From a bacterium (GTDB lineage: Bacteria; Bacteroidota; Ignavibacteria; Kapaibacteriales; UBA2268), in assembly GCA_043804925.1 (NCBI GenBank), contig JAZDIP010000104.1, forward strand, positions 63,538 through 127,537: a stretch of 64,000 nucleotides of DNA. Direction: 5' to 3'. This document shows, piece after piece, positions 12,854-53,137 of this stretch (positions are counted from its first letter, which is position 1; the number at the start of each line of letters is the position of its first letter). The notes beneath the pieces are model-generated. The model saw nothing but the letters and a program-made list of their open reading frames with translations, did not search any database and had not been told where the DNA came from. The position numbers and the translations under genes are program-made.

Positions 12854-12915
12854 TCAATTGTCAATTGTTAATTGTTAATTGTTAATGAAGACAGAAGACA
12901 GAAGACAGAAGGGAG
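12852..12915. repeat. Word-repeat spacer: (CAATTGTTAATTGTTAA)n followed by (GAAGACA)3.
   Basis: tcaattgtcaattgttaattgttaattgttaatgaagacagaagacagaagacagaagggag. Confidence 0.7.
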
Positions 12916-12952: not shown

Positions 12953-14197
12953 ATGAGTGAACTAATAAATAATTCGGAAAACAGAAAAAAGTTATTAAAG
13001 CATTTGATTTTGCAATTGCATGAAGGAACTGCTCCGGAGCAGGTTAGAAAACAACTAATGGATTTGATGCAAAAAATTCCTTATGGAGAAATTGTAGAAG
13101 TCGAACAGGAACTGATTAATGAAGGTTTACCTGAAGCAGAAGTAATCAAATTATGCGATATTCACGGAAAAGTTCTTGAAGGCAATATTGACCATACTGC
13201 GGCAAAGGAAGTTCCTGAAGGTCATCCGGTTGATACATTCAAAAAAGAGAATATTGAACTATCCAAAGTTGTTGATTCATTAAATAATTTCCTTAACGAG
13301 ATAACAGCAGATGGTAAACAGATAACGGCAGATAGTTTAGTTTCATCATTGAATAAAATCAAAGGAATGTTCAATGCTTTGATGGATGTTGACAAGCACT
13401 ATCAAAGAAAGGAAAATTTGTTATTCCCGTTTTTAGAAAAAAAGAATATCACAGGACCTCCCAAAGTTATGTGGGCAAAGCACGACGAAACAAGAGAGAA
13501 ACTGAAAGCCGCTATTGAGGCATGCAATCCCGAAGCTATTGCCGATAATGATGATTTCCAATCCGCTGTTGAGTTCTTATTCAAGCCGGCGGCTGAAGCG
13601 GTTACTGATATGATAATGAAGGAAGATGAAATTTTGTTTCCGATGGCGATGGATTTATTGACTGATTTGGAATGGTATGAAATTTATCAACAGACATTAG
13701 AGATAGGATTTTGCCTTTACGATCCGCAAGTTGAATGGCATCCCATTGGTGTTGAAGATGAACTGGTACATTCTAAAAGCGATGAAAATTTGATTCAATT
13801 ACCTTCAGGTAGCTTCACACCTCATGAATTGAATGCTCTTTTGAATACACTACCATTCGATTTGACTTTTGTTGATAAAGATGATAAGGTTAGATATTTT
13901 ACTCAGGGAGAGGAAAGGATTTTTGCAAGAAACAGAGCAATTTTAAAACGTGATGTTCGGTTGTGTCATCCACCTTCAAGTGTGCATATTGTTGACCAAA
14001 TAATCAATGACTTCAAGACAGGCAAGCAAGACAGGGCTCCTTTTTGGATTAATATGCACGAACAATTTATTCACATAGAATATTTTGCAGTCAGGGATGA
14101 AAATGGTGAGTATCTTGGTACATTGGAAGTGAGCCAGAATGCTACCGGATTGAGGAATCTTGAAGGTGAGCAAAGACTTCTGTCTTATAGTAAGTGA
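12953..14197 (+). CDS. DUF438-type protein with a hemerythrin-like cation-binding region and a C-terminal PAS-like domain.
   Basis: 414 aa. N-terminal helical DUF438-like region; H/E-rich hemerythrin-like motifs (KHYQRKENLLFP..WAKHDETRE). Architecture recognised from memory of DUF438 family proteins. Confidence 0.5.
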   Translation: MSELINNSENRKKLLKHLILQLHEGTAPEQVRKQLMDLMQKIPYGEIVEVEQELINEGLPEAEVIKLCDIHGKVLEGNIDHTAAKEVPEGHPVDTFKKENIELSKVVDSLNNFLNEITADGKQITADSLVSSLNKIKGMFNALMDVDKHYQRKENLLFPFLEKKNITGPPKVMWAKHDETREKLKAAIEACNPEAIADNDDFQSAVEFLFKPAAEAVTDMIMKEDEILFPMAMDLLTDLEWYEIYQQTLEIGFCLYDPQVEWHPIGVEDELVHSKSDENLIQLPSGSFTPHELNALLNTLPFDLTFVDKDDKVRYFTQGEERIFARNRAILKRDVRLCHPPSSVHIVDQIINDFKTGKQDRAPFWINMHEQFIHIEYFAVRDENGEYLGTLEVSQNATGLRNLEGEQRLLSYSK

Positions 14198-14326
14198 GGG
14201 AAAAGGGAAAAGGGAAAAGGGAGAAGGGAAAAAGGAGAAATAGAAATTAGAATGTAGAATGTAGAATGTAGAATGTAAAATGTAAAATGTAGAATGTAGA
14301 ATGTAAAATGAAAATCGAACTAAGAT
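14198..14326. repeat. Word-repeat spacer: (GGGAAAA)4-5 followed by (AATGTAGA/AATGTAAA)~10.
   Basis: gggaaaagggaaaagggaaaagggagaagggaaaaaggag...agaatgtagaatgtagaatgtagaatgtaaaatgtaaaatgtagaatgtagaatgtaaaatg. Confidence 0.8.
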
Positions 14327-30509: not shown

Positions 30510-31400
30510 TTATTTTTTATTCATAATATCGCAATTTGCTTTCCAGATTAAATTATCTCCATTTGTATTGATTTTAACAGCAGAGAAATTAATATTATGA
30601 GGGATATAATCGAATTCTCCGGTTTTCTTTTTTTTCGACGGAATCGGCAAATCAATTACAGTTGCCAAACTTATTGGAACAGGTATCGGACTTAAAATAT
30701 CCGTAAATTCAAGTTCTATTTCTTCTCTCCAAGGGATATTCCATTTCAAAAAGGCAATCGAGAATTTTGTTTTTAGCTTTAATTTTTTTGGAACCGGCTT
30801 TAATAAAATATCTCCATTTCCTGCATTCTCGATTTTAAATTCTACATTATCCTTGAGATATAAATTAACTCCGCTTGTTACAGATGCCGAAATTCCTGTG
30901 TTTTTTCCCGACAAAGATATTTCACCATCACCTTCGATTTCAATCAATGATTCAATTCTGTTATTATTCAGCTTCAAAAATTTTAATGATTTCAAATCCA
31001 CTTTAACAGTACCTTTGTCTATATCAACATAGTTGGTATATTGAATACCCAAAACATTTTTATCGTCTTTAATCAGATTTTTTGTTTTTGGAAAATCTAT
31101 AGTTATATCTTGATTTCTGTTATTTGCAACTACAGCAAGAACTCTGTTTATCATTGCCTTTTGAATTGTCAAATCTAAATTATAACCCGAAGGCAGATTG
31201 CCGGTTTTTGAATTTATATAGTTATTTACAACATCAAGCTTGATTCTGGAATCCTCAATTTTCTTATTTGACTCCTCAATTGTTGGCAGTTCAATAGTCG
31301 AACATGAAATTATTATAAAAGCAAAAATAAAAAATAGATATTTTATATATTTCAAATTATTAGTAATTAGTAATTGGCAATTAGTAATTAATGAACTCAT
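30510..31400 (-). CDS. Hypothetical lipoprotein (296 aa). Its N-terminus is encoded by a TTAGTAA word repeat.
   Basis: Lipobox IISCST. ATGA overlap with the upstream gene. The first codons (MSSLITNCQLLITNN) are read from (attacta)n. An alternative TTG start (MKYIKYLFF..) lies at about 31355. Confidence 0.5.
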   Translation of the reverse strand: MSSLITNCQLLITNNLKYIKYLFFIFAFIIISCSTIELPTIEESNKKIEDSRIKLDVVNNYINSKTGNLPSGYNLDLTIQKAMINRVLAVVANNRNQDITIDFPKTKNLIKDDKNVLGIQYTNYVDIDKGTVKVDLKSLKFLKLNNNRIESLIEIEGDGEISLSGKNTGISASVTSGVNLYLKDNVEFKIENAGNGDILLKPVPKKLKLKTKFSIAFLKWNIPWREEIELEFTDILSPIPVPISLATVIDLPIPSKKKKTGEFDYIPHNINFSAVKINTNGDNLIWKANCDIMNKK

Positions 31401-44467: not shown

Positions 44468-44860
44468 AATGAAATAAAATTTTTTTAGTTGTTTGTCAAA
44501 GAACGATGCAATAGTTAAAGTTGCGGTGCAATTCATGGGCTTTGTATCTCTTTTATTTCCTTGGCATTAGGAGCATCAGCGGAAAAAGTTGCATCAATTT
44601 CACCGATTTTTTCAGTTTTATTATCTGTTATCTGTAATCCATTTTTCGTTATTTTATAAAACCGAAATCAATTTACAAAGAACATGCTGGACAAATTTAG
44701 TTGTTAGGTATTAAACGTAATGGAAATTATTTTAAAAGGACTATTATTTTGTTCTCGGTTGTCAGTTATCGGTATCGGTTGAAAACGAAACAGTATCCTT
44801 CGACAAGCTCTGGAAGACCGCAGACAGCAGACAGCAGGCGGGAGGAAGAGAATACAGTTA

Positions 44861-45516
44861 CAGACAGATTCACTGAGGAGGCATGGAGGGACACAGAGAA
44901 GAAGTCTGAACCGTTGATTGTAGCTGATTGAACTGATTTTGGTGATTATTAACAGCGTAGCTGTGGTATCTATTATGTCGCCACTACGTGGCTTTGAGCG
45001 TTGTTGGTTGTCGTGTGCTACAAAGGTGATACCACTACGTGGTTAAGAATTTCTGTCGGAACTGGGATTTTTAGGATTTATGGGATGGACAGGAAAATTG
45101 CTGTCAGATGTAACAAAGACAGAACGAAATTAAAATGTAAAATGTAGAATGTAGAATGTAGAATTGAAGGCAGTTACACGGAGCTACACAGAGGAGGCAC
45201 AGAGGGACACAGAGAAAATGTCTGAACCGTTGATTGTAGCTGATTGAAATGATTTCGCTGATTTTTTTAACAGCGTAGCTGTGGTATCTTGGTAGAAAAA
45301 GTGAACCAATAGCGGTTTGAACAGCGTAGCTGTGGCATTTTTATATAATCGTAATTAGTAATCGTTAATTCGTAATTGAATCAATGCCGCCACTACGTGG
45401 CTTTGGTCGTTGTTGGTTGTCGTGTGCTACAAAGGTGATACCACTACGTGGTTAAGAATTTTTGTCGGAACTGGGATTTTTAGGATTTTTGGGATGGACA
45501 GGAAAATTGCTGTCAG
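44861..45516. repeat. Two tandem copies (about 44861-45107 and 45174-45516) of a composite repeat unit.
   Basis: The unit contains CACAGAG words, tctgaaccgttgattgtagctgattgaa, aacagcgtagctgtggtatct (x3), ccactacgtggc hairpins, gtcggaactgggatttttaggattt and a ctgtcag hairpin. AATGTAR heptamers (45121-45163) lie between the two copies. Confidence 0.7.
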
Positions 45517-45748
45517 TTGTAAAAAGTGACAGGACGGGAAAGCCACAGAGCCACACACCCCCTACCCCCCTCTTGATAGGGGGGACAAGAGACCCCACCC
45601 CTGCTCTCCCCGAATCAGGGAGGGAGAAGAAAGATGTAATCTTTAGGCGATATTTTTTTCCTCATCGCTTTTTGCTGTCAGGTGTAGGAACTGACAGAAC
45701 GGAATATTACCTCAATTTATTGATTCGAATGAGTAATTATATATACTA

Positions 45749-47153: not shown

Positions 47154-47552
47154 TCAGACAATTTGTTTGTATTTCTTATTTTCAAATCTTTTGAACTCAA
47201 GACTTTGAGCTCCAAAATTAATCAACAATCCGATTTCCAGATTGTATGCTTCCAAATAATTGATTGCCTGTGCTAAATGAACTTTCTCCAATTCAATCAA
47301 TGCTTTCAACTCAACTGAAATTTTATCTTCAACAAGAAAATCAACTCGTCTTTCACCAACTTCAACGTGTTTGTAATGAACTTTTATTGGTTGTTCTCTT
47401 ATGAATTTTATCTTTCTTAGCCGGAATTCTTCTGCTAATGCTCTTTGATAAATCAACTCCTGAAAACCATTGCCTAATGCTTTGTGTACTTCTAAAGCAG
47501 CACCAATAATTTTTGATGTCAATTCCGAATATTTATATTTTTCATTTATCAT
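47154..47552 (-). CDS. GxxExxY-family protein (PD-(D/E)XK nuclease-like), second copy.
   Basis: SKIIGAALEVHKALGNGFQELIYQRAL (GxxExxY) ... RVDFLVEDKISVELKAL. 132 aa. Flanked on both sides by direct repeats. Confidence 0.75.
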   Translation of the reverse strand: MINEKYKYSELTSKIIGAALEVHKALGNGFQELIYQRALAEEFRLRKIKFIREQPIKVHYKHVEVGERRVDFLVEDKISVELKALIELEKVHLAQAINYLEAYNLEIGLLINFGAQSLEFKRFENKKYKQIV

Positions 47553-47820: not shown

Positions 47821-47940
47821 AGTTTATAAAGTATAAAGTTTAAAAGTTTAAAAGTCCCAAAAGGAAAATTACGAAAGATTTGAGAGAAAAGCAAGAAGTC
47901 TGAAGACAGAAGTCAGAAGTCTGAATTCTCGTGAACCGAA
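47821..47940. repeat. Word-repeat spacer: (AAAGTTTAWAAG)n, then (GAAGTCWGAAGAC)n.
   Basis: ttagttcataaagtttataaagtataaagtttaaaagtttaaaag ... aagcaagaagtctgaagacagaagtcagaagtctgaa. Confidence 0.6.
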
Positions 47941-49905: not shown

Positions 49906-51099
49906 TCAAATTACTCCCGAATCTTTTAATAATTGGATTTCCGTTTCTGAAAATCCCATTTCGGTCAATATCTCATTTGTATGTTCAGACAGTAACGGTG
50001 GGGGAGAATCCACAGTCCCGGGAGTTTTCTCAAATTTTGCTGTCATATTAAAAAGTTTTACAGTTCCAATTCCTTCGACATCAACAGAAGTAAAAGTATT
50101 TCTATGCTCGATTTGCGGAGATGTCAATGCATCAAATAAAGATAAAATCTCACCAGAAGGAACGCCTGCTTTATTTAATACTTCCGACCAATAAGAAGTT
50201 TCTTCCTCCACTAATTTTGCTTCTAATAAAGGTGTTAGCTTAAAGCGGTTTTTCTTTCGTGTATCTCTTTCCTTGAATCTCGTGTCTTCCTTTAATTCAG
50301 GAACCCCAAGCAAATCAGCAACGGCTTCCCATTGCTCCTGCTTGTTCGCCGCTATATTGATATAACCGTCTTTTGTTTTGAAAGTTCCCGAAGGTGCAGC
50401 AGTGAAATTATCATTTCCAAGTAGTTGCGGATGTTGACCACCAATTAATAAATTTGCCGCTACCCAACCCATCAAAGGCATTGTGGAATCAATCAAAGCA
50501 ACATCTATGAATTGACCTTCTCCGCTTTTTTCCCTGTGGTATAATGCTGACATAATAGCAAATGCTGCGTTTAATCCACCGACAGTATCGCAAAGCGGAA
50601 AACCTGCACGAAGCGGATTCAATCTCTCATCGCCATTGACAGCCATCACACCGCTCAAGCCCTGAATTATCTGGTCATAAGCCGGTTTCTTAGCATCAGG
50701 TCCGGTTTGCCCGAAGCCCGATATTGCACAGTAAATCAAATGGGGATTTATTTCAGATAATGCTTTGTAACCCAATCCCAATCGTTCCAAAACATCCGGT
50801 CTGAAGTTTTCGACTAAGACATCTGCAGTCGAAACAAGTTTTCTGAAAATCTCTTTAGCTTTATCTTCTTTCAGATTTAGAGTCATTGATTTTTTATTAG
50901 CATTTTGTGCAAGAAAGCTTGTACCCATCAGCTTTTTGTTATATTCAGGGACACAGCCGAGCTTACGTGCCAGGTCGCCTCCATCAGGATTTTCAACCTT
51001 AATAACTTCAGCACCCAACCAAGCCAAGTGCAATGTTGCAAATGGTCCCGACAAAACATTCGTCAAATCTAATACTCTAATTCCTTCAAGCAATTTCAT
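49906..51099 (-). CDS. CoA-transferase family III enzyme (CaiB/BaiF/formyl-CoA transferase-like).
   Basis: MKLLEGIRVLDLTNVLSGPFATLHLAWLGAEVIKVENPDGGDLAR is the hallmark N-terminus of family III CoA-transferases. 397 aa. Confidence 0.8.
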   Translation of the reverse strand: MKLLEGIRVLDLTNVLSGPFATLHLAWLGAEVIKVENPDGGDLARKLGCVPEYNKKLMGTSFLAQNANKKSMTLNLKEDKAKEIFRKLVSTADVLVENFRPDVLERLGLGYKALSEINPHLIYCAISGFGQTGPDAKKPAYDQIIQGLSGVMAVNGDERLNPLRAGFPLCDTVGGLNAAFAIMSALYHREKSGEGQFIDVALIDSTMPLMGWVAANLLIGGQHPQLLGNDNFTAAPSGTFKTKDGYINIAANKQEQWEAVADLLGVPELKEDTRFKERDTRKKNRFKLTPLLEAKLVEEETSYWSEVLNKAGVPSGEILSLFDALTSPQIEHRNTFTSVDVEGIGTVKLFNMTAKFEKTPGTVDSPPPLLSEHTNEILTEMGFSETEIQLLKDSGVI

Positions 51100-51204
51100 A
51101 TTTTCATCCGGTTTGTTAAATTAAAATTCAAAAATAATATAATTCCTTTATTTTCAATTTTCGACAAATTTAAAAAGAGCAATTTAAAAAACAAAATTTT
51201 AAAA

Positions 51205-51337
51205 CCATAATTCAATCCCTCCGGGATTGTGAAAACAAAAATAATTATCGTTTTCTACATATATTCAATCTCTCCGGGATTGTGAAATCCTTGGTTTACC
51301 ACTGCTACCATAGTTCAATCCCTCCGGGATTGTTCTT
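51205..51337. repeat. Mini-array of three palindromic direct repeats (a 24-30 bp core TTCAATCCCTCCGGGATTGTGAAA) separated by unrelated 20-29 bp spacers. CRISPR-like geometry, but no cas genes nearby; alternatively a REP/terminator hairpin cluster.
   Basis: Copies at 51211-51234, 51264-51287 and 51314-51334 (the last is degenerate at its distal end). The core forms the hairpin ttcaatccc-tcc-gggattg(t)gaa. Spacers are acaaaaataattatcgttttctacatata and tccttggtttaccactgctaccatag. Confidence 0.55.
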
Positions 51338-51388
51338 GCACCCTTCTCCCTTTTCCTTTCTCCTCCAATGGTTTCGCTTTTTCGTGTT

Positions 51389-51721
51389 TCAATAAGTTAA
51401 AACTTCATAAAGATTTTTCTTTATTTCATTTAACTGAAAATCTGTGATTTCTCCTATTTTATTGATTAATCTGTCCTTGCTGATAGTCCTGATTTGAAAT
51501 GTAATAATCTCGGAATCATTCTTTAAATTATTGTTGCTGTCAGCTTTTAACTGTACACATCCTGCATAACCTTTGAGTGCCGAACTTAATGGGCAAACGA
51601 TGCAGACATCAAGATTATCATTCATTGCATTACCGCTTATAATAACAACCGGTCTGATTCCCTGTTGTTCGGAACCTTTTGAAGGATTCAAATTAGCAAA
51701 AAATATTTCTTTTTGTTTCAT
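51389..51721 (-). CDS. MazF/PemK-family type II toxin (mRNA interferase).
   Basis: SKGSEQQGIRPVVIISGNAMN...VCIVCPLSS...ITFQIRTISKDRL matches the PemK/MazF fold signature. 4-bp overlap with the upstream antitoxin gene. Confidence 0.75.
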   Translation of the reverse strand: MKQKEIFFANLNPSKGSEQQGIRPVVIISGNAMNDNLDVCIVCPLSSALKGYAGCVQLKADSNNNLKNDSEIITFQIRTISKDRLINKIGEITDFQLNEIKKNLYEVLTY

Positions 51722-51960
51722 TTGTCCAATATCTCTAAAAAGTCCTCGATACCATCTTCTGTCAAGTTTTTAATCTCAATATCATTCTTGGCTTTTTGAA
51801 ATGATTTTGTGTATTCTTCCTTTTTCAGTTCATTAATGTAGTTTTTAACAGCTATACTAATTAATCTGCTTTTCGGAGTTTTCATTTTTTTAGAATAATC
51901 ATTAAGCAATGAAATTAATTCCGGTGATATTGTGCTCGTAAAAGTAACAGAGTTTCTCAT
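51718..51960 (-). CDS. Antitoxin partner of the MazF-like toxin (ribbon-helix-helix/CopG-like, 80 aa).
   Basis: VTFTSTISPELISLLNDYSKKMKTPKSRLISIAVKNYI is a typical RHH N-terminus. Position and overlap are typical of a type II TA pair. Confidence 0.6.
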   Translation of the reverse strand: MRNSVTFTSTISPELISLLNDYSKKMKTPKSRLISIAVKNYINELKKEEYTKSFQKAKNDIEIKNLTEDGIEDFLEILDK

Positions 51961-52205
51961 AAGATATTTACTATTTATATTTACAATAATATTTACATTT
52001 TACAAATATAACGAATATTTATATTTTATATTGTTAAATTACACTTTATTTCTCCTCTCTTCTCTCTTTTTCTTTCTTCCATTTTCCATTGTCGAACAAC
52101 GACTGACGACTACTTATCCATAAACTCATATACTCCATTCCATTCCTTGAGCAGTCCGACACATTTTCGCATCTGCAGATTCTTACAACGTTCTATGAAA
52201 AATGT

Positions 52206-52355
52206 CTACACCGGAACTTGTAGGTGCGAACGGCCGTTCCCCCCTACGTTTTCATATATTCGCTTTGCATTGTTGAAATCACCTTTTTGATACAAAGCAA
52301 ACGCTTCCTGCAATGTTTTTTCGTTTCTCTGTCTCGTTTCTTTCAAAAAACTCAA
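52206..52355 (-). pseudogene. N-terminal fragment (about 49 codons) of a TPR-repeat protein. The reading frame is broken at an inserted perfect palindrome GAACGGCCGTTC.
   Basis: The minus-strand frame reads (L)SFLKETRQRNEKTLQEAFALYQKGDFNNAKRIYENVGGNGRSHLQVPV*. LQEAFALYQKGDFNNAKRIYENV is a canonical TPR N-terminus. No continuation exists in any frame. The local GC is higher than the surroundings. Confidence 0.35.
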
Positions 52356-52370
52356 AGATAAAATAATATT

Positions 52371-53051
52371 TTACTTTACTTTATAAATTCCGTCTCGTTC
52401 GATATCTATTGAACCACCTTCGTAACCGCATTCTCCCATCCTCGGTGAATTAACTACAGGCATATTACCGTATTCTGCAAAATCAGCGCATGTCTCTTCA
52501 TGTTTTTTAGCACATTCTTCACAAAAAAACGAATAGTCATCATAATTGCATGTTGTACAAATAAACGCAGCCGGTTTTATTTTGCAAGTAACACACATCA
52601 GTTTCAAAGGTTGGTTACGTGATAAAAGGACAATATCATCTTTCAATCTTAACTGATAATTTTTTAGTCCCTTTAAATATGTTCTTGTTGTCGTACCAAA
52701 GTCATAATCATGATAAATTTTTATTCGGTCTACAAAAATGTCTTCAACAATATCTTTATTACTAATTTTGAAATTTTTATGTCCGAAACAACTCAAGTGT
52801 CCGCAGCAGTCAAGCCAAATATCTCTTAGAAAATTGTCAATTAATTTCATTTTTGCAGTTCCGTTTACGAGCAAATGTAAAAACATTTCACCCGCATCCA
52901 CAACAACATGGCAATAGTTTTTTGTACCATTACCACCATCATTTTTTTCCATTTCGGAAAGATGCATACCTAAGTGTTTACCCATCTCCCTCTGTGATAT
53001 CATCTTTTCACAAAAAAGACAGCTGCCTTCCGATTTTAATTCTTCTTCCAT
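52371..53051 (-). CDS. Cysteine-rich zinc-finger/zinc-ribbon protein of unknown function (226 aa).
   Basis: C2H2-like CLFCEKMISQREMGKHLGMH (C-x2-C-x12-H-x3-H); further CxxC pairs CVTC...CTTC and CEEC...C. Confidence 0.5.
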   Translation of the reverse strand: MEEELKSEGSCLFCEKMISQREMGKHLGMHLSEMEKNDGGNGTKNYCHVVVDAGEMFLHLLVNGTAKMKLIDNFLRDIWLDCCGHLSCFGHKNFKISNKDIVEDIFVDRIKIYHDYDFGTTTRTYLKGLKNYQLRLKDDIVLLSRNQPLKLMCVTCKIKPAAFICTTCNYDDYSFFCEECAKKHEETCADFAEYGNMPVVNSPRMGECGYEGGSIDIERDGIYKVK

Positions 53052-53137
53052 ATTACTTTTTCCCTTTTATCAATTAATAAGATATTTTCTTCATAAACCT
53101 TTATTCTTTTCCTTTCTCCCTTTTGCTTTCTCCTCTT

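Follow-up and report, generated by a model that had tools for sequence, protein, structure and literature searches.

The 64,000-nt stretch analysed here (hereafter the window), taken from contig JAZDIP010000104.1 of a bacterium of the Ignavibacteria (Kapaibacteriales), carries three short hairpin-forming repeats in a 289-nt spacer lying within a string of minus-strand genes. The repeats are situated between a CoA-transferase gene and a toxin-antitoxin pair of the MazEF type, and were described in the initial annotation as a mini-array with the geometry of clustered regularly interspaced short palindromic repeats (CRISPR) downstream of that pair. The location is borne out, unit 3 lying 55 nt from the mazF stop codon; the three repeats are, however, interpreted here, with a probability of about 78%, as an orphan, non-autonomous cluster, similar to the bacterial interspersed mosaic elements (BIMEs), of a hairpin family of the repetitive extragenic palindrome (REP) type that is tied elsewhere to a Y1 transposase. 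The features of the locus are as follows.

49906..51099, - strand: family III CoA-transferase gene, start codon 111 nt from unit 1
51147..51203, + strand: AT-rich segment with TTTTCAATTTT / AATTTAAAA motifs
51204..51234, + strand: hairpin unit 1, ACCATAA-TT-[CAATCCC TCC GGGATTG]-T-GAAA, without a full CTAC tag; stem 51213-51219 / 51223-51229, loop 51220-51222; 36.1 bits
51231..51255, + strand: linker 1, with a weak AT-rich hairpin GAAAAC...GTTTTC directly 5' of the CTAC tag of unit 2
51255..51287, + strand: hairpin unit 2, CTAC (51255-51258), ATATA-TT-[CAATCTC TCC GGGATTG]-T-GAAA; stem 51266-51272 / 51276-51282, C>T at 51271 giving a T-G mispair; 34.9 bits
51305..51333, + strand: hairpin unit 3, CTAC (51305-51308), CATAG-TT-[CAATCCC TCC GGGATTG]-T, 3' flank TCTT; stem 51316-51322 / 51326-51332; 39.1 bits
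51341..51366, + strand: polypyrimidine heptamer-like tract CCCTTCTCCCTTTTCCTTTCTCCTCC, 7 nt past unit 3
51389..51721, - strand: PemK/MazF toxin gene (PF02452, E=8e-27)
51718..51960, - strand: ribbon-helix-helix (RHH) antitoxin gene (PF12651, E=6e-7), preceding mazF
52371-53051: open reading frame (ORF) ORF226, Cys-rich, with no Pfam match

The repeat, TTCAATC[C/T]CTCCGGGATTGT, starts at 51211, 51264 and 51314, so that the start-to-start distances are 53 and 50 nt, exactly as first reported. A scan of both strands of the 64 kb with TTCAATCCCTCCGGGATTG, allowing up to three mismatches, returned these three plus-strand sites alone; the match at 51264 carries one C>T change and the core TTCAATCCCTCCGGGATTGT is intact at 51211 and 51314. 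The chance expectation for such matches is 0.01, and three copies were reached in 0 of 100 shuffles. The same three sites only were recovered from the 64 kb in an unfiltered search with a covariance model representing the wider hairpin family (35-39 bits, the runner-up scoring 13 bits). Each copy folds into a 7-bp stem, CAATCCC/GGGATTG, closed by the 3-nt loop TCC, in place of the 11-bp hairpin core proposed earlier, with a DNA folding dG of -5.8 kcal/mol (z about -4.6), or -3.2 kcal/mol for the middle copy. It is the middle copy that carries the substitution in the core (stem C>T), whereas in the distal copy, previously regarded as degenerate, the core is perfect and the 3' flank (TCTT, not GAAA) is the sole difference.

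The conserved unit extends over about 31 nt and comprises a CTAC-type tag, 5 nt, TT, the hairpin and T(GAAA); CTAC and 5 nt precede two of the three copies, being missing from the first, and GAAA follows two of the three. CTAC is the reverse complement of GTAG; the family consensus of the tag is YTAY, located 7 nt off the stem and not abutting it. Since the CTAC tag and GAAA count as conserved, the variable linkers are only about 17-20 nt long, as against the 29- and 26-nt spacers of the initial annotation, and their sequences are unrelated to each other. Judged by its position, the hairpin of linker 1 appears to occupy the place of the GC-rich 'hairpin + CTATTGG' module found in other members of the family.

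A palindromic repeat of 20-24 nt at 53/50 spacing, with two unrelated linkers and an AT-rich flank, has the geometry of a minimal or degenerate CRISPR array, in which three repeats and two spacers would be served by cas genes located elsewhere, and a very weak match to the Rfam family CRISPR-DR25 was obtained (14.8 bits, E=5.9). This score is far under the gathering score of 36, and when set against the CRISPR norm (repeats of 23-47 nt, spacers of 26-72 nt) the repeats have a 20-nt core (24 nt in two copies) with one substitution and linkers of 17-20 nt. PADLOC, applied to the 58 window ORFs that reach 100 aa, a set from which shorter frames (possibly including Cas2) are excluded, detected no core Cas protein and only a generic DEDDh exonuclease model. 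A Pfam overview of the window ORFs agrees in showing no Cas proteins, and the earlier statement that no cas gene is in reach is thus upheld among these 58 ORFs. Neither the linkers nor the array matched anything among 50,697 phage records, 72,556 plasmids and IMG/VR, with sensitivity limited at 20-30 nt, so that the proposed search of the spacers against phages and plasmids yielded nothing.

Exact scans for TTCAATCYCTCCGGGATTGT in species-representative genomes, metagenome contigs and viral contigs identified the 20-mer in 35 genome stretches and 39 metagenome stretches, and in no viral contig. The hosts include Bacteroidales, Cytophagia, Saprospiraceae, Ignavibacteria/Melioribacteraceae, Marinimicrobia and two metagenome-assembled genomes (MAGs) of Planctomycetota, and nearly all of these other copies are intergenic. 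Two matches to a variant with CTC, found in coding regions of an archaeon and a poribacterium, were treated as chance. Alignment of the flanks across loci showed nothing conserved 3' of the 20-mer and only the YTAY-N5 tag on its 5' side; the tag is often preceded by a GC-rich hairpin, the covarying stem of which differs from locus to locus.

In the 72 other loci (numbered with the prefix L) the hairpin occurs singly or in up to five units, and long arrays with unique spacers were not found among them. In multi-copy loci (L024, L034, L035/L014, L077 and L080) a unit of 98, 167, about 350 or 62-64 nt is repeated in tandem together with its intervening sequence, and near-identical 'spacers' are present in L073, L024, L034, L035, L077 and L080. 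Such repetition within arrays is the opposite of what is expected of CRISPR spacers. Adjacent repeats, moreover, differ by compensatory stem changes, unlike CRISPR repeats, and the recurrent neighbour of the hairpin is a Y1 transposase and not cas. Thus, given no cas genes among the 58 ORFs scanned, no Rfam CRISPR family at threshold, repeated spacers elsewhere, the Y1 neighbour and no protospacer match, the CRISPR interpretation is rejected as scarcely credible, and a false lead is removed from the annotation of the window. The evidence favours the alternative also raised at the outset, a function of the REP type, which was then rated as no less likely.

Arrays with a period of 50-55 nt, comparable to that of the window, are found in L073 (five units), L060, L069, L052 and L006, the last labelled Ignavibacterium album. 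The AT-rich contigs share the layout of the window, namely an opposite-strand gene start, AATTTTC-type repeats, the hairpins and a polypyrimidine heptamer-like tract, and AT-rich heptamer runs comparable to the segment 5' of the window array precede those of L073, L060 and L052. From composition, our guess is that the contigs L073, L060, L069 and L052 belong to relatives of the window organism. Two to three hairpin loci per contig or MAG are found in relatives (L052, L073 and JAIOZI01).

The stem of the hairpin was examined for compensatory change. A fuzzy search by sequence alone detected the nearby compensatory variants TTCAATCGCTCTGCGATTGT and TTCAATTCCTACGGAATTGT, and the neighbourhood of the 20-mer (within 300 nt) shows a 19-fold enrichment of hairpins with the same foot and other stems (TTCAACCCC..GGGGTTG, TTCAACTCC..GGAGTTG and TTCAACCAC..GTGGTTG). 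The covariance model R1 recovered 129 sites in the fetched loci, in the alignment of which 99.7% of the cells are paired and double changes affect six of the seven pairs; 51 double-change cells were observed as against 8.9 in shuffles and 0-2 with a slid partner. Pairing is almost exclusively Watson-Crick, with one G-U pair in 798 cells, and we therefore infer that the constraint on the stem acts at the level of DNA, or on both strands, and not on a single strand of RNA.

This pattern has consequences for those explanations in which the hairpins act as RNA. Hairpins selected by the host could form a stack of terminators or mRNA stabilisers at the 3' end of mazEF that insulates the CoA-transferase gene, an arrangement to which the location of the array 55 nt past the mazF stop in a unidirectional gene string is well suited. 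The hairpin nearest the CoA-transferase gene (51229-51213, minus strand) was flagged in a scan for terminators, and members of the family prefer gene 3' ends in antisense orientation (the right-hand gene is on the minus strand in 37 cases and on the plus strand in 15), as published REPs do (PMC3733652). The flagged hairpin, however, has a poor tail (AATTATGGTT): the T-rich run that had been noted after the last hairpin on the minus strand is indeed present but begins 8 nt past the stem and not directly after it. The other two hairpins have no T-run, one of three flagged compares with 0.4 expected by chance, sequence 3' of the hairpin has no family-wide conservation, and the RNA of the whole intergenic region folds no better than shuffles (z=-0.24). 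The near-absence of G-U pairs is unexpected under a constraint on RNA, and an RNA element would leave unexplained both the association with Y1 and the 20/20 identity across phyla. Terminators or stabilisers are thus unlikely as the basis of the family, and the terminator function put forward earlier is weakly supported, although such a role is possible as a side effect.

The same near-absence of G-U pairs tells against a structured small RNA or a cis-regulatory leader encoded by the intergenic region, which might otherwise be suggested by a conserved, covarying hairpin that, in the AT-rich lineage, lies 43-111 nt 5' of start codons in a single orientation. No Rfam family was matched, an E-value-mode search of 51050-51450 giving noise only, and nothing larger than 20-30 nt is conserved in common among the loci. 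With one to five copies per locus and linkage to a transposase and to derivatives resembling miniature inverted-repeat transposable elements (MITEs), such an RNA is considered very unlikely. Two related candidates were discarded: TTCAATCC resembles a T-loop, but ARAGORN found no tRNA in the window, Rfam gave nothing at gathering level and the hairpin pairs 'T-loop' with 'acceptor' bases, which opposes a tRNA-derived fragment; and a cis-regulatory link through a 396-aa Bacteroidales ORF failed, that protein being an aminotransferase unrelated to CoA-transferase.

Covariation confined to Watson-Crick pairs is also compatible with a palindrome in duplex DNA, for instance an operator for a dimeric regulator such as MazE-MazF or a regulator of the CoA-transferase gene. 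Three pairs of 7-bp inverted half-sites with 3-bp centres, about five helical turns apart and 110-230 nt upstream of the CoA-transferase start, would suit such a function. The sites are, however, downstream and not upstream of mazEF, and the syntenic L081 expresses the same gene pair without them. The changes of CCC/GGG to CGC/GCG, TCC/GGA and ACC/GGT preserve pairing and not a fixed sequence, and the same sequence lies beside unrelated genes in different phyla, its sole recurrent protein partner being the Y1 transposase. An operator is accordingly judged highly improbable.

When flanking ORFs were compared all-against-all, one protein family was found beside the hairpin in otherwise unrelated loci, matching Pfam Y1_Tnp (E=1e-14 to 1e-26); the other multi-locus clusters represent syntenic Bacteroidales loci or overlapping reading frames. 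With tblastn, a Y1 protein or its remnant was located in 19 of the loci selected by the motif. The Y1 ORFs are 150-174 aa as called, five of six being 150-153 aa and the sixth 172 aa, and the six sequences share an HUH motif (N/D-H-I/L-H), WQ, Y..[NK]Q..HH and a short conserved C-terminal tail. They score 42-67 bits with the NCBIfam IS200 model (cut-off 55) and 18-24 bits with the model of RayT (cut-off 80). Homologues of one Y1 protein form 2,952 clusters (E<=1e-10), mostly on one or two contigs, and are common in Bacteroidota; many have been named 'REP element-mobilizing transposase RayT' by JGI. The signature of TnpA-Y1 subclass 1.2 comprises about 148 aa, the HUH motif [DN]H[IV]H, WQ, Y---Q--HH and low copy number (PMC6006769), and the associated protein, as far as its sequence indicates, fits it.

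The hairpins are arranged in a characteristic manner around these genes. In most loci the TCAA-N4-loop-N4'-TTG hairpins are antisense upstream and sense downstream of the Y1 gene, L035 and L053 having additional antisense copies downstream, and the core is tandemly repeated upstream of the gene in L077 and L080. The gene is flanked by inverted hairpin copies in 18 motif-selected loci and in all four of those selected by protein. The latter constitute a reverse test, in which four independent Y1 loci were picked by protein similarity, blind to the motif, and 4/4 carry mirrored composite arms. Each arm is made up of an inner TTCAA...TTG hairpin, a GC hairpin followed by CTATTGG, and a third hairpin of the GACGCC-TCC-GGCGTC type; the core AATCCC-GGA-GGGATT is identical in two of the four protein-selected loci and represented by compensatory variants in the other two.

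Copies in peat metagenomes (contigs L040, L037, L038, L049, L053, L056, L059, L063 and L070-L072) provide indications of actual movement. A unit of about 990 bp (L040 33-1025) contains the Y1 gene and the 20-mer and ends in a 15-bp inverted repeat, CTACCCTTTATACAC ... GTGTATAAAGGGTAG; complete elements end in CTAC...GTAG. At least ten different sequences adjoin the L040-type unit on its right, and MITE-like derivatives in L072, L065, L049 and L063 have lost the interior and keep only the two arms. This unit behaves as an insertion sequence (IS) with offspring resembling MITEs or REPINs (REP doublets forming hairpins).

The left flank of the peat elements is polypyrimidine and the right flank polypurine (...CCCCTCTTTGCAA | element | TTGCAAAGAGGGG...), and in L072 the 9-bp sequence TAATTCTTA stands as a direct repeat on either side of the MITE copy, a possible target duplication. 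Target duplication would be unusual for a Y1 transposase. These flanks and the L072 repeat suggest either that a palindromic target was entered at its loop or that the terminal repeats are longer and have diverged.

Among known systems, the closest parallels are REPs, BIMEs and REPtrons, the last encoding REP-associated tyrosine transposases (RAYT = TnpA-REP) (Nunvar 2010; Ton-Hoang 2012; Bertels & Rainey 2011; Di Nocera 2013). The present family has in common with them short hairpins in extragenic DNA whose foot is conserved and whose upper stem covaries, a tetranucleotide close by that may be an equivalent tag (CTAC/CTAT being the reverse complement of GTAG/ATAG), regularly spaced clusters and a preference for gene 3' ends, together with a Y1 HUH gene between inverted copies and two-arm non-autonomous derivatives of the REPIN or MITE kind. 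It differs in that its Y1 protein is of class 1 (IS200-like, Y..Q..HH) whereas RAYT is of class 2 (Y...NP), in a seemingly low copy number per genome and in a tag 7 nt from the stem where that of REPs is adjacent. The window units are, moreover, direct and not alternating, and the 20-mer is identical across phyla, while REPs are usually species-specific.

IS200/IS605 elements likewise combine a Y1 HUH transposase of about 150 aa with subterminal hairpins as likely recognition elements, but their hairpin ends are on the same strand and lack terminal inverted repeats (TIRs), whereas the arms described here are in inverted orientation with a 15-bp inverted repeat at the termini, and the window has no transposase gene. 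TIRtrons (TIRYT; Di Nocera 2013) resemble the family in having a Y1 gene bracketed by long TIRs that also exist as moderately abundant repeat families; TIRYTs are RAYT-like (class 2), and the arms here are built of REP-like hairpin modules. With TnpA-Y1 subclass 1.2 (Quentin, Siguier, Chandler, Fichant 2018, PMC6006769) the proteins share a length of about 148-150 aa, [DN]H[IL]H, WQ, Y..[NK]Q..HH and the C-terminal tail, but the 2018 classification attributes to this subclass neither REPs nor IS-type ends, whereas the genes here have composite inverted hairpin arms and one lineage has 15-bp TIRs, many insertion sites and deletion derivatives. A CRISPR array resembles the window repeats in its regularly spaced short palindromic direct repeats, unrelated linkers and AT-rich flank; three units, 17-20-nt linkers, no cas genes, compensatory repeat changes, often duplicated spacers and a transposase link set them apart.

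The family to which the window cluster is assigned has the hairpin form TT-CAAYNNC-loop-GNNRTTG-T, usually after a YTAY tag, and ranges over Bacteroidota, Ignavibacteriota-like bacteria and Marinimicrobia, with two matches in Planctomycetota MAGs; in its complete form a Y1 (HUH) gene of about 150 aa lies between inverted composite arms, each with the hairpin. By analogy with IS200/IS605 (IS608) TnpA and E. coli RAYT, a Y1 dimer would bind the hairpin folded on single-stranded DNA, for example at a replication fork, and would cleave and rejoin at a nearby short site, for which the CTAC/GTAG tags and termini are candidates. Segments bearing hairpins would thereby be moved or multiplied, and local tandem duplication could give rise to arrays with a period of about 50 nt. 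In the window, the polypyrimidine tract would have been in place first, and a hairpin block may have entered between it and the CoA-transferase promoter region; consequences for the transcripts of mazEF or of the CoA-transferase gene, if any, would be secondary and are hypothetical.

Several observations weigh against assigning the window repeats to a Y1-mobilised family. The Y1 gene was not found in the 64-kb window, and the dispersal of the repeat and the Y1 content of the source organism were assessed within these 64 kb, which hold a single locus of the hairpin. The window units are all direct, without the GC-rich second hairpin and without the 15-bp terminal repeat of complete elements, which was not found in the window at up to three mismatches. 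In each of six chromosomes or contigs (2.6-5.2 Mb) the exact 20-mer is confined to a single locus, a low copy number unlike that of classical REPs. Quentin et al. 2018 reported no REPs for subclass 1.2 (PMC6006769), and binding and cutting of the hairpin by an enzyme of this subclass is proposed from the above analogies. Finally, the covariation alignment was fitted to the structure with seeds chosen for pairing, and thus leans towards structure.

On balance, and by a narrow measure, the hairpin TT-CAAYNNC-loop-GNNRTTG-T is probably the previously unrecognised cognate DNA site of subclass-1.2 Y1 transposases, which would supply a candidate DNA partner for this class of small Y1 HUH enzymes. 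If so, subclass 1.2 would represent a distinct REPtron/IS family with composite three-hairpin inverted arms, CTAC...GTAG termini and MITE-like derivatives, to which the short direct hairpin arrays beside polypyrimidine/heptamer tracts in AT-rich Ignavibacteria-like genomes would also belong, and the finding of a 20/20 identical hairpin in different phyla would be explained by a conserved, horizontally spreading enzyme that recognises the specific sequence. A literature search for the hairpin sequence found no paper containing it, and the sole description of the subclass reports no cognate repeats; the hairpin family therefore appears to be undescribed, although REP/REPtron systems as a kind are well known.

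The genomic setting of the array is consistent with its acquisition as a block. The closest homologues of the window CoA-transferase are found in Ignavibacteria/Kapaibacteria-like MAGs, and in L081, where the protein is 89% identical, the order is an HMGL-like gene, an 82-nt spacer and the CoA-transferase gene, the hairpin block being missing. The L081 spacer consists of the polypyrimidine tract joined straight to the promoter-proximal 48 nt, the latter shared with the window; the AT-rich segment 51147..51203 and the three units are missing from it, while the tract is already present. Compared with L081 3920-4000, the window has about 2 kb more (51147-53104) between the HMGL-like and CoA-transferase genes, made up of the hairpin block (about 51147-51340), the RHH-MazF pair and ORF226, and since all three are missing in L081 they are regarded as extra DNA in the window. 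The hairpin block lies exactly between the tract and the conserved promoter-proximal segment and therefore looks like an insertion, so that the spacer between mazEF and the CoA-transferase gene is marked as recently rearranged DNA. The hairpins upstream of the latter gene read ACAATCCCGGAGGGATTGAA in its sense direction.

The polypyrimidine tract delimits the inserted hairpin block and could be a target or hotspot for insertion, or a promoter-associated element. It recurs in the window at 52044-52090 and 53105-53137. The tract (CCCTTCTCCCTTTTCC..., purine-rich on the coding strand) is found about 45-55 nt 5' of two gene starts, those of the CoA-transferase gene in L081 (tract at L081 3925-3960) and of ORF226, and 5' of mazE at a distance of about 85-130 nt from its start. 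The hairpin arrays of L060, L069 and the window directly adjoin the tract, and in L073 it lies about 95 nt past the last hairpin. An attC-like site of an integron, considered because a toxin-antitoxin cassette is adjacent, was rejected, the units being too short and one-sided and their partner a Y1 protein and not an integrase.

Other repeat-rich regions were observed in the course of the analysis. In L057 1650-2660, composite units of about 210 nt follow one another densely in tandem, with TTCAAT..ATTG hairpins in both orientations as well as TTCAACTCC..GGAGTTG and TATTCCC..GGGAATA hairpins, next to a gene that is DUF3800-like by eye; the array is a REPIN-like arrangement of the same hairpin family. 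A second complex non-coding repeat region of the window, 44840-45700, is composed of two composite units of about 410 nt (parts 95% and 83% identical) that hold the triloop hairpins GCCACTACGTGGC, ACCACTACGTGGT and ACAGCGTAGCTGT x3, a CTACAAAGG tag and heptamer runs. The region is organised in a manner reminiscent of the Y1-associated composite arms; sequence homology to the fetched loci was not found.

Heptanucleotide tandem repeats fill the intergenic DNA of this genome and of its relatives (L082/L083, L084). In the window they include TAGAATG x9 (14248-14310) and AGGGAAA x5.7 (14197-14236), with further sites at 12856-12911, 31359-31390, 45127-45164 and 47894-47925, and L082 and L083, with an identical CoA-transferase and the same gene order, have TTCACTC/TTCACTA units arranged differently. 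Such repeats resemble the STRR repeats of heterocystous cyanobacteria. Subclass-1.2 Y1 genes have been reported from Cyanobacteria and Bacteroidetes, and a link between the heptamer repeats and these genes is speculative. The window also encodes two ORFs of the PD-(D/E)XK_3 nuclease family (one at 47154-47552 on the minus strand), two WD40 beta-propeller ORFs and two S24 peptidase ORFs.

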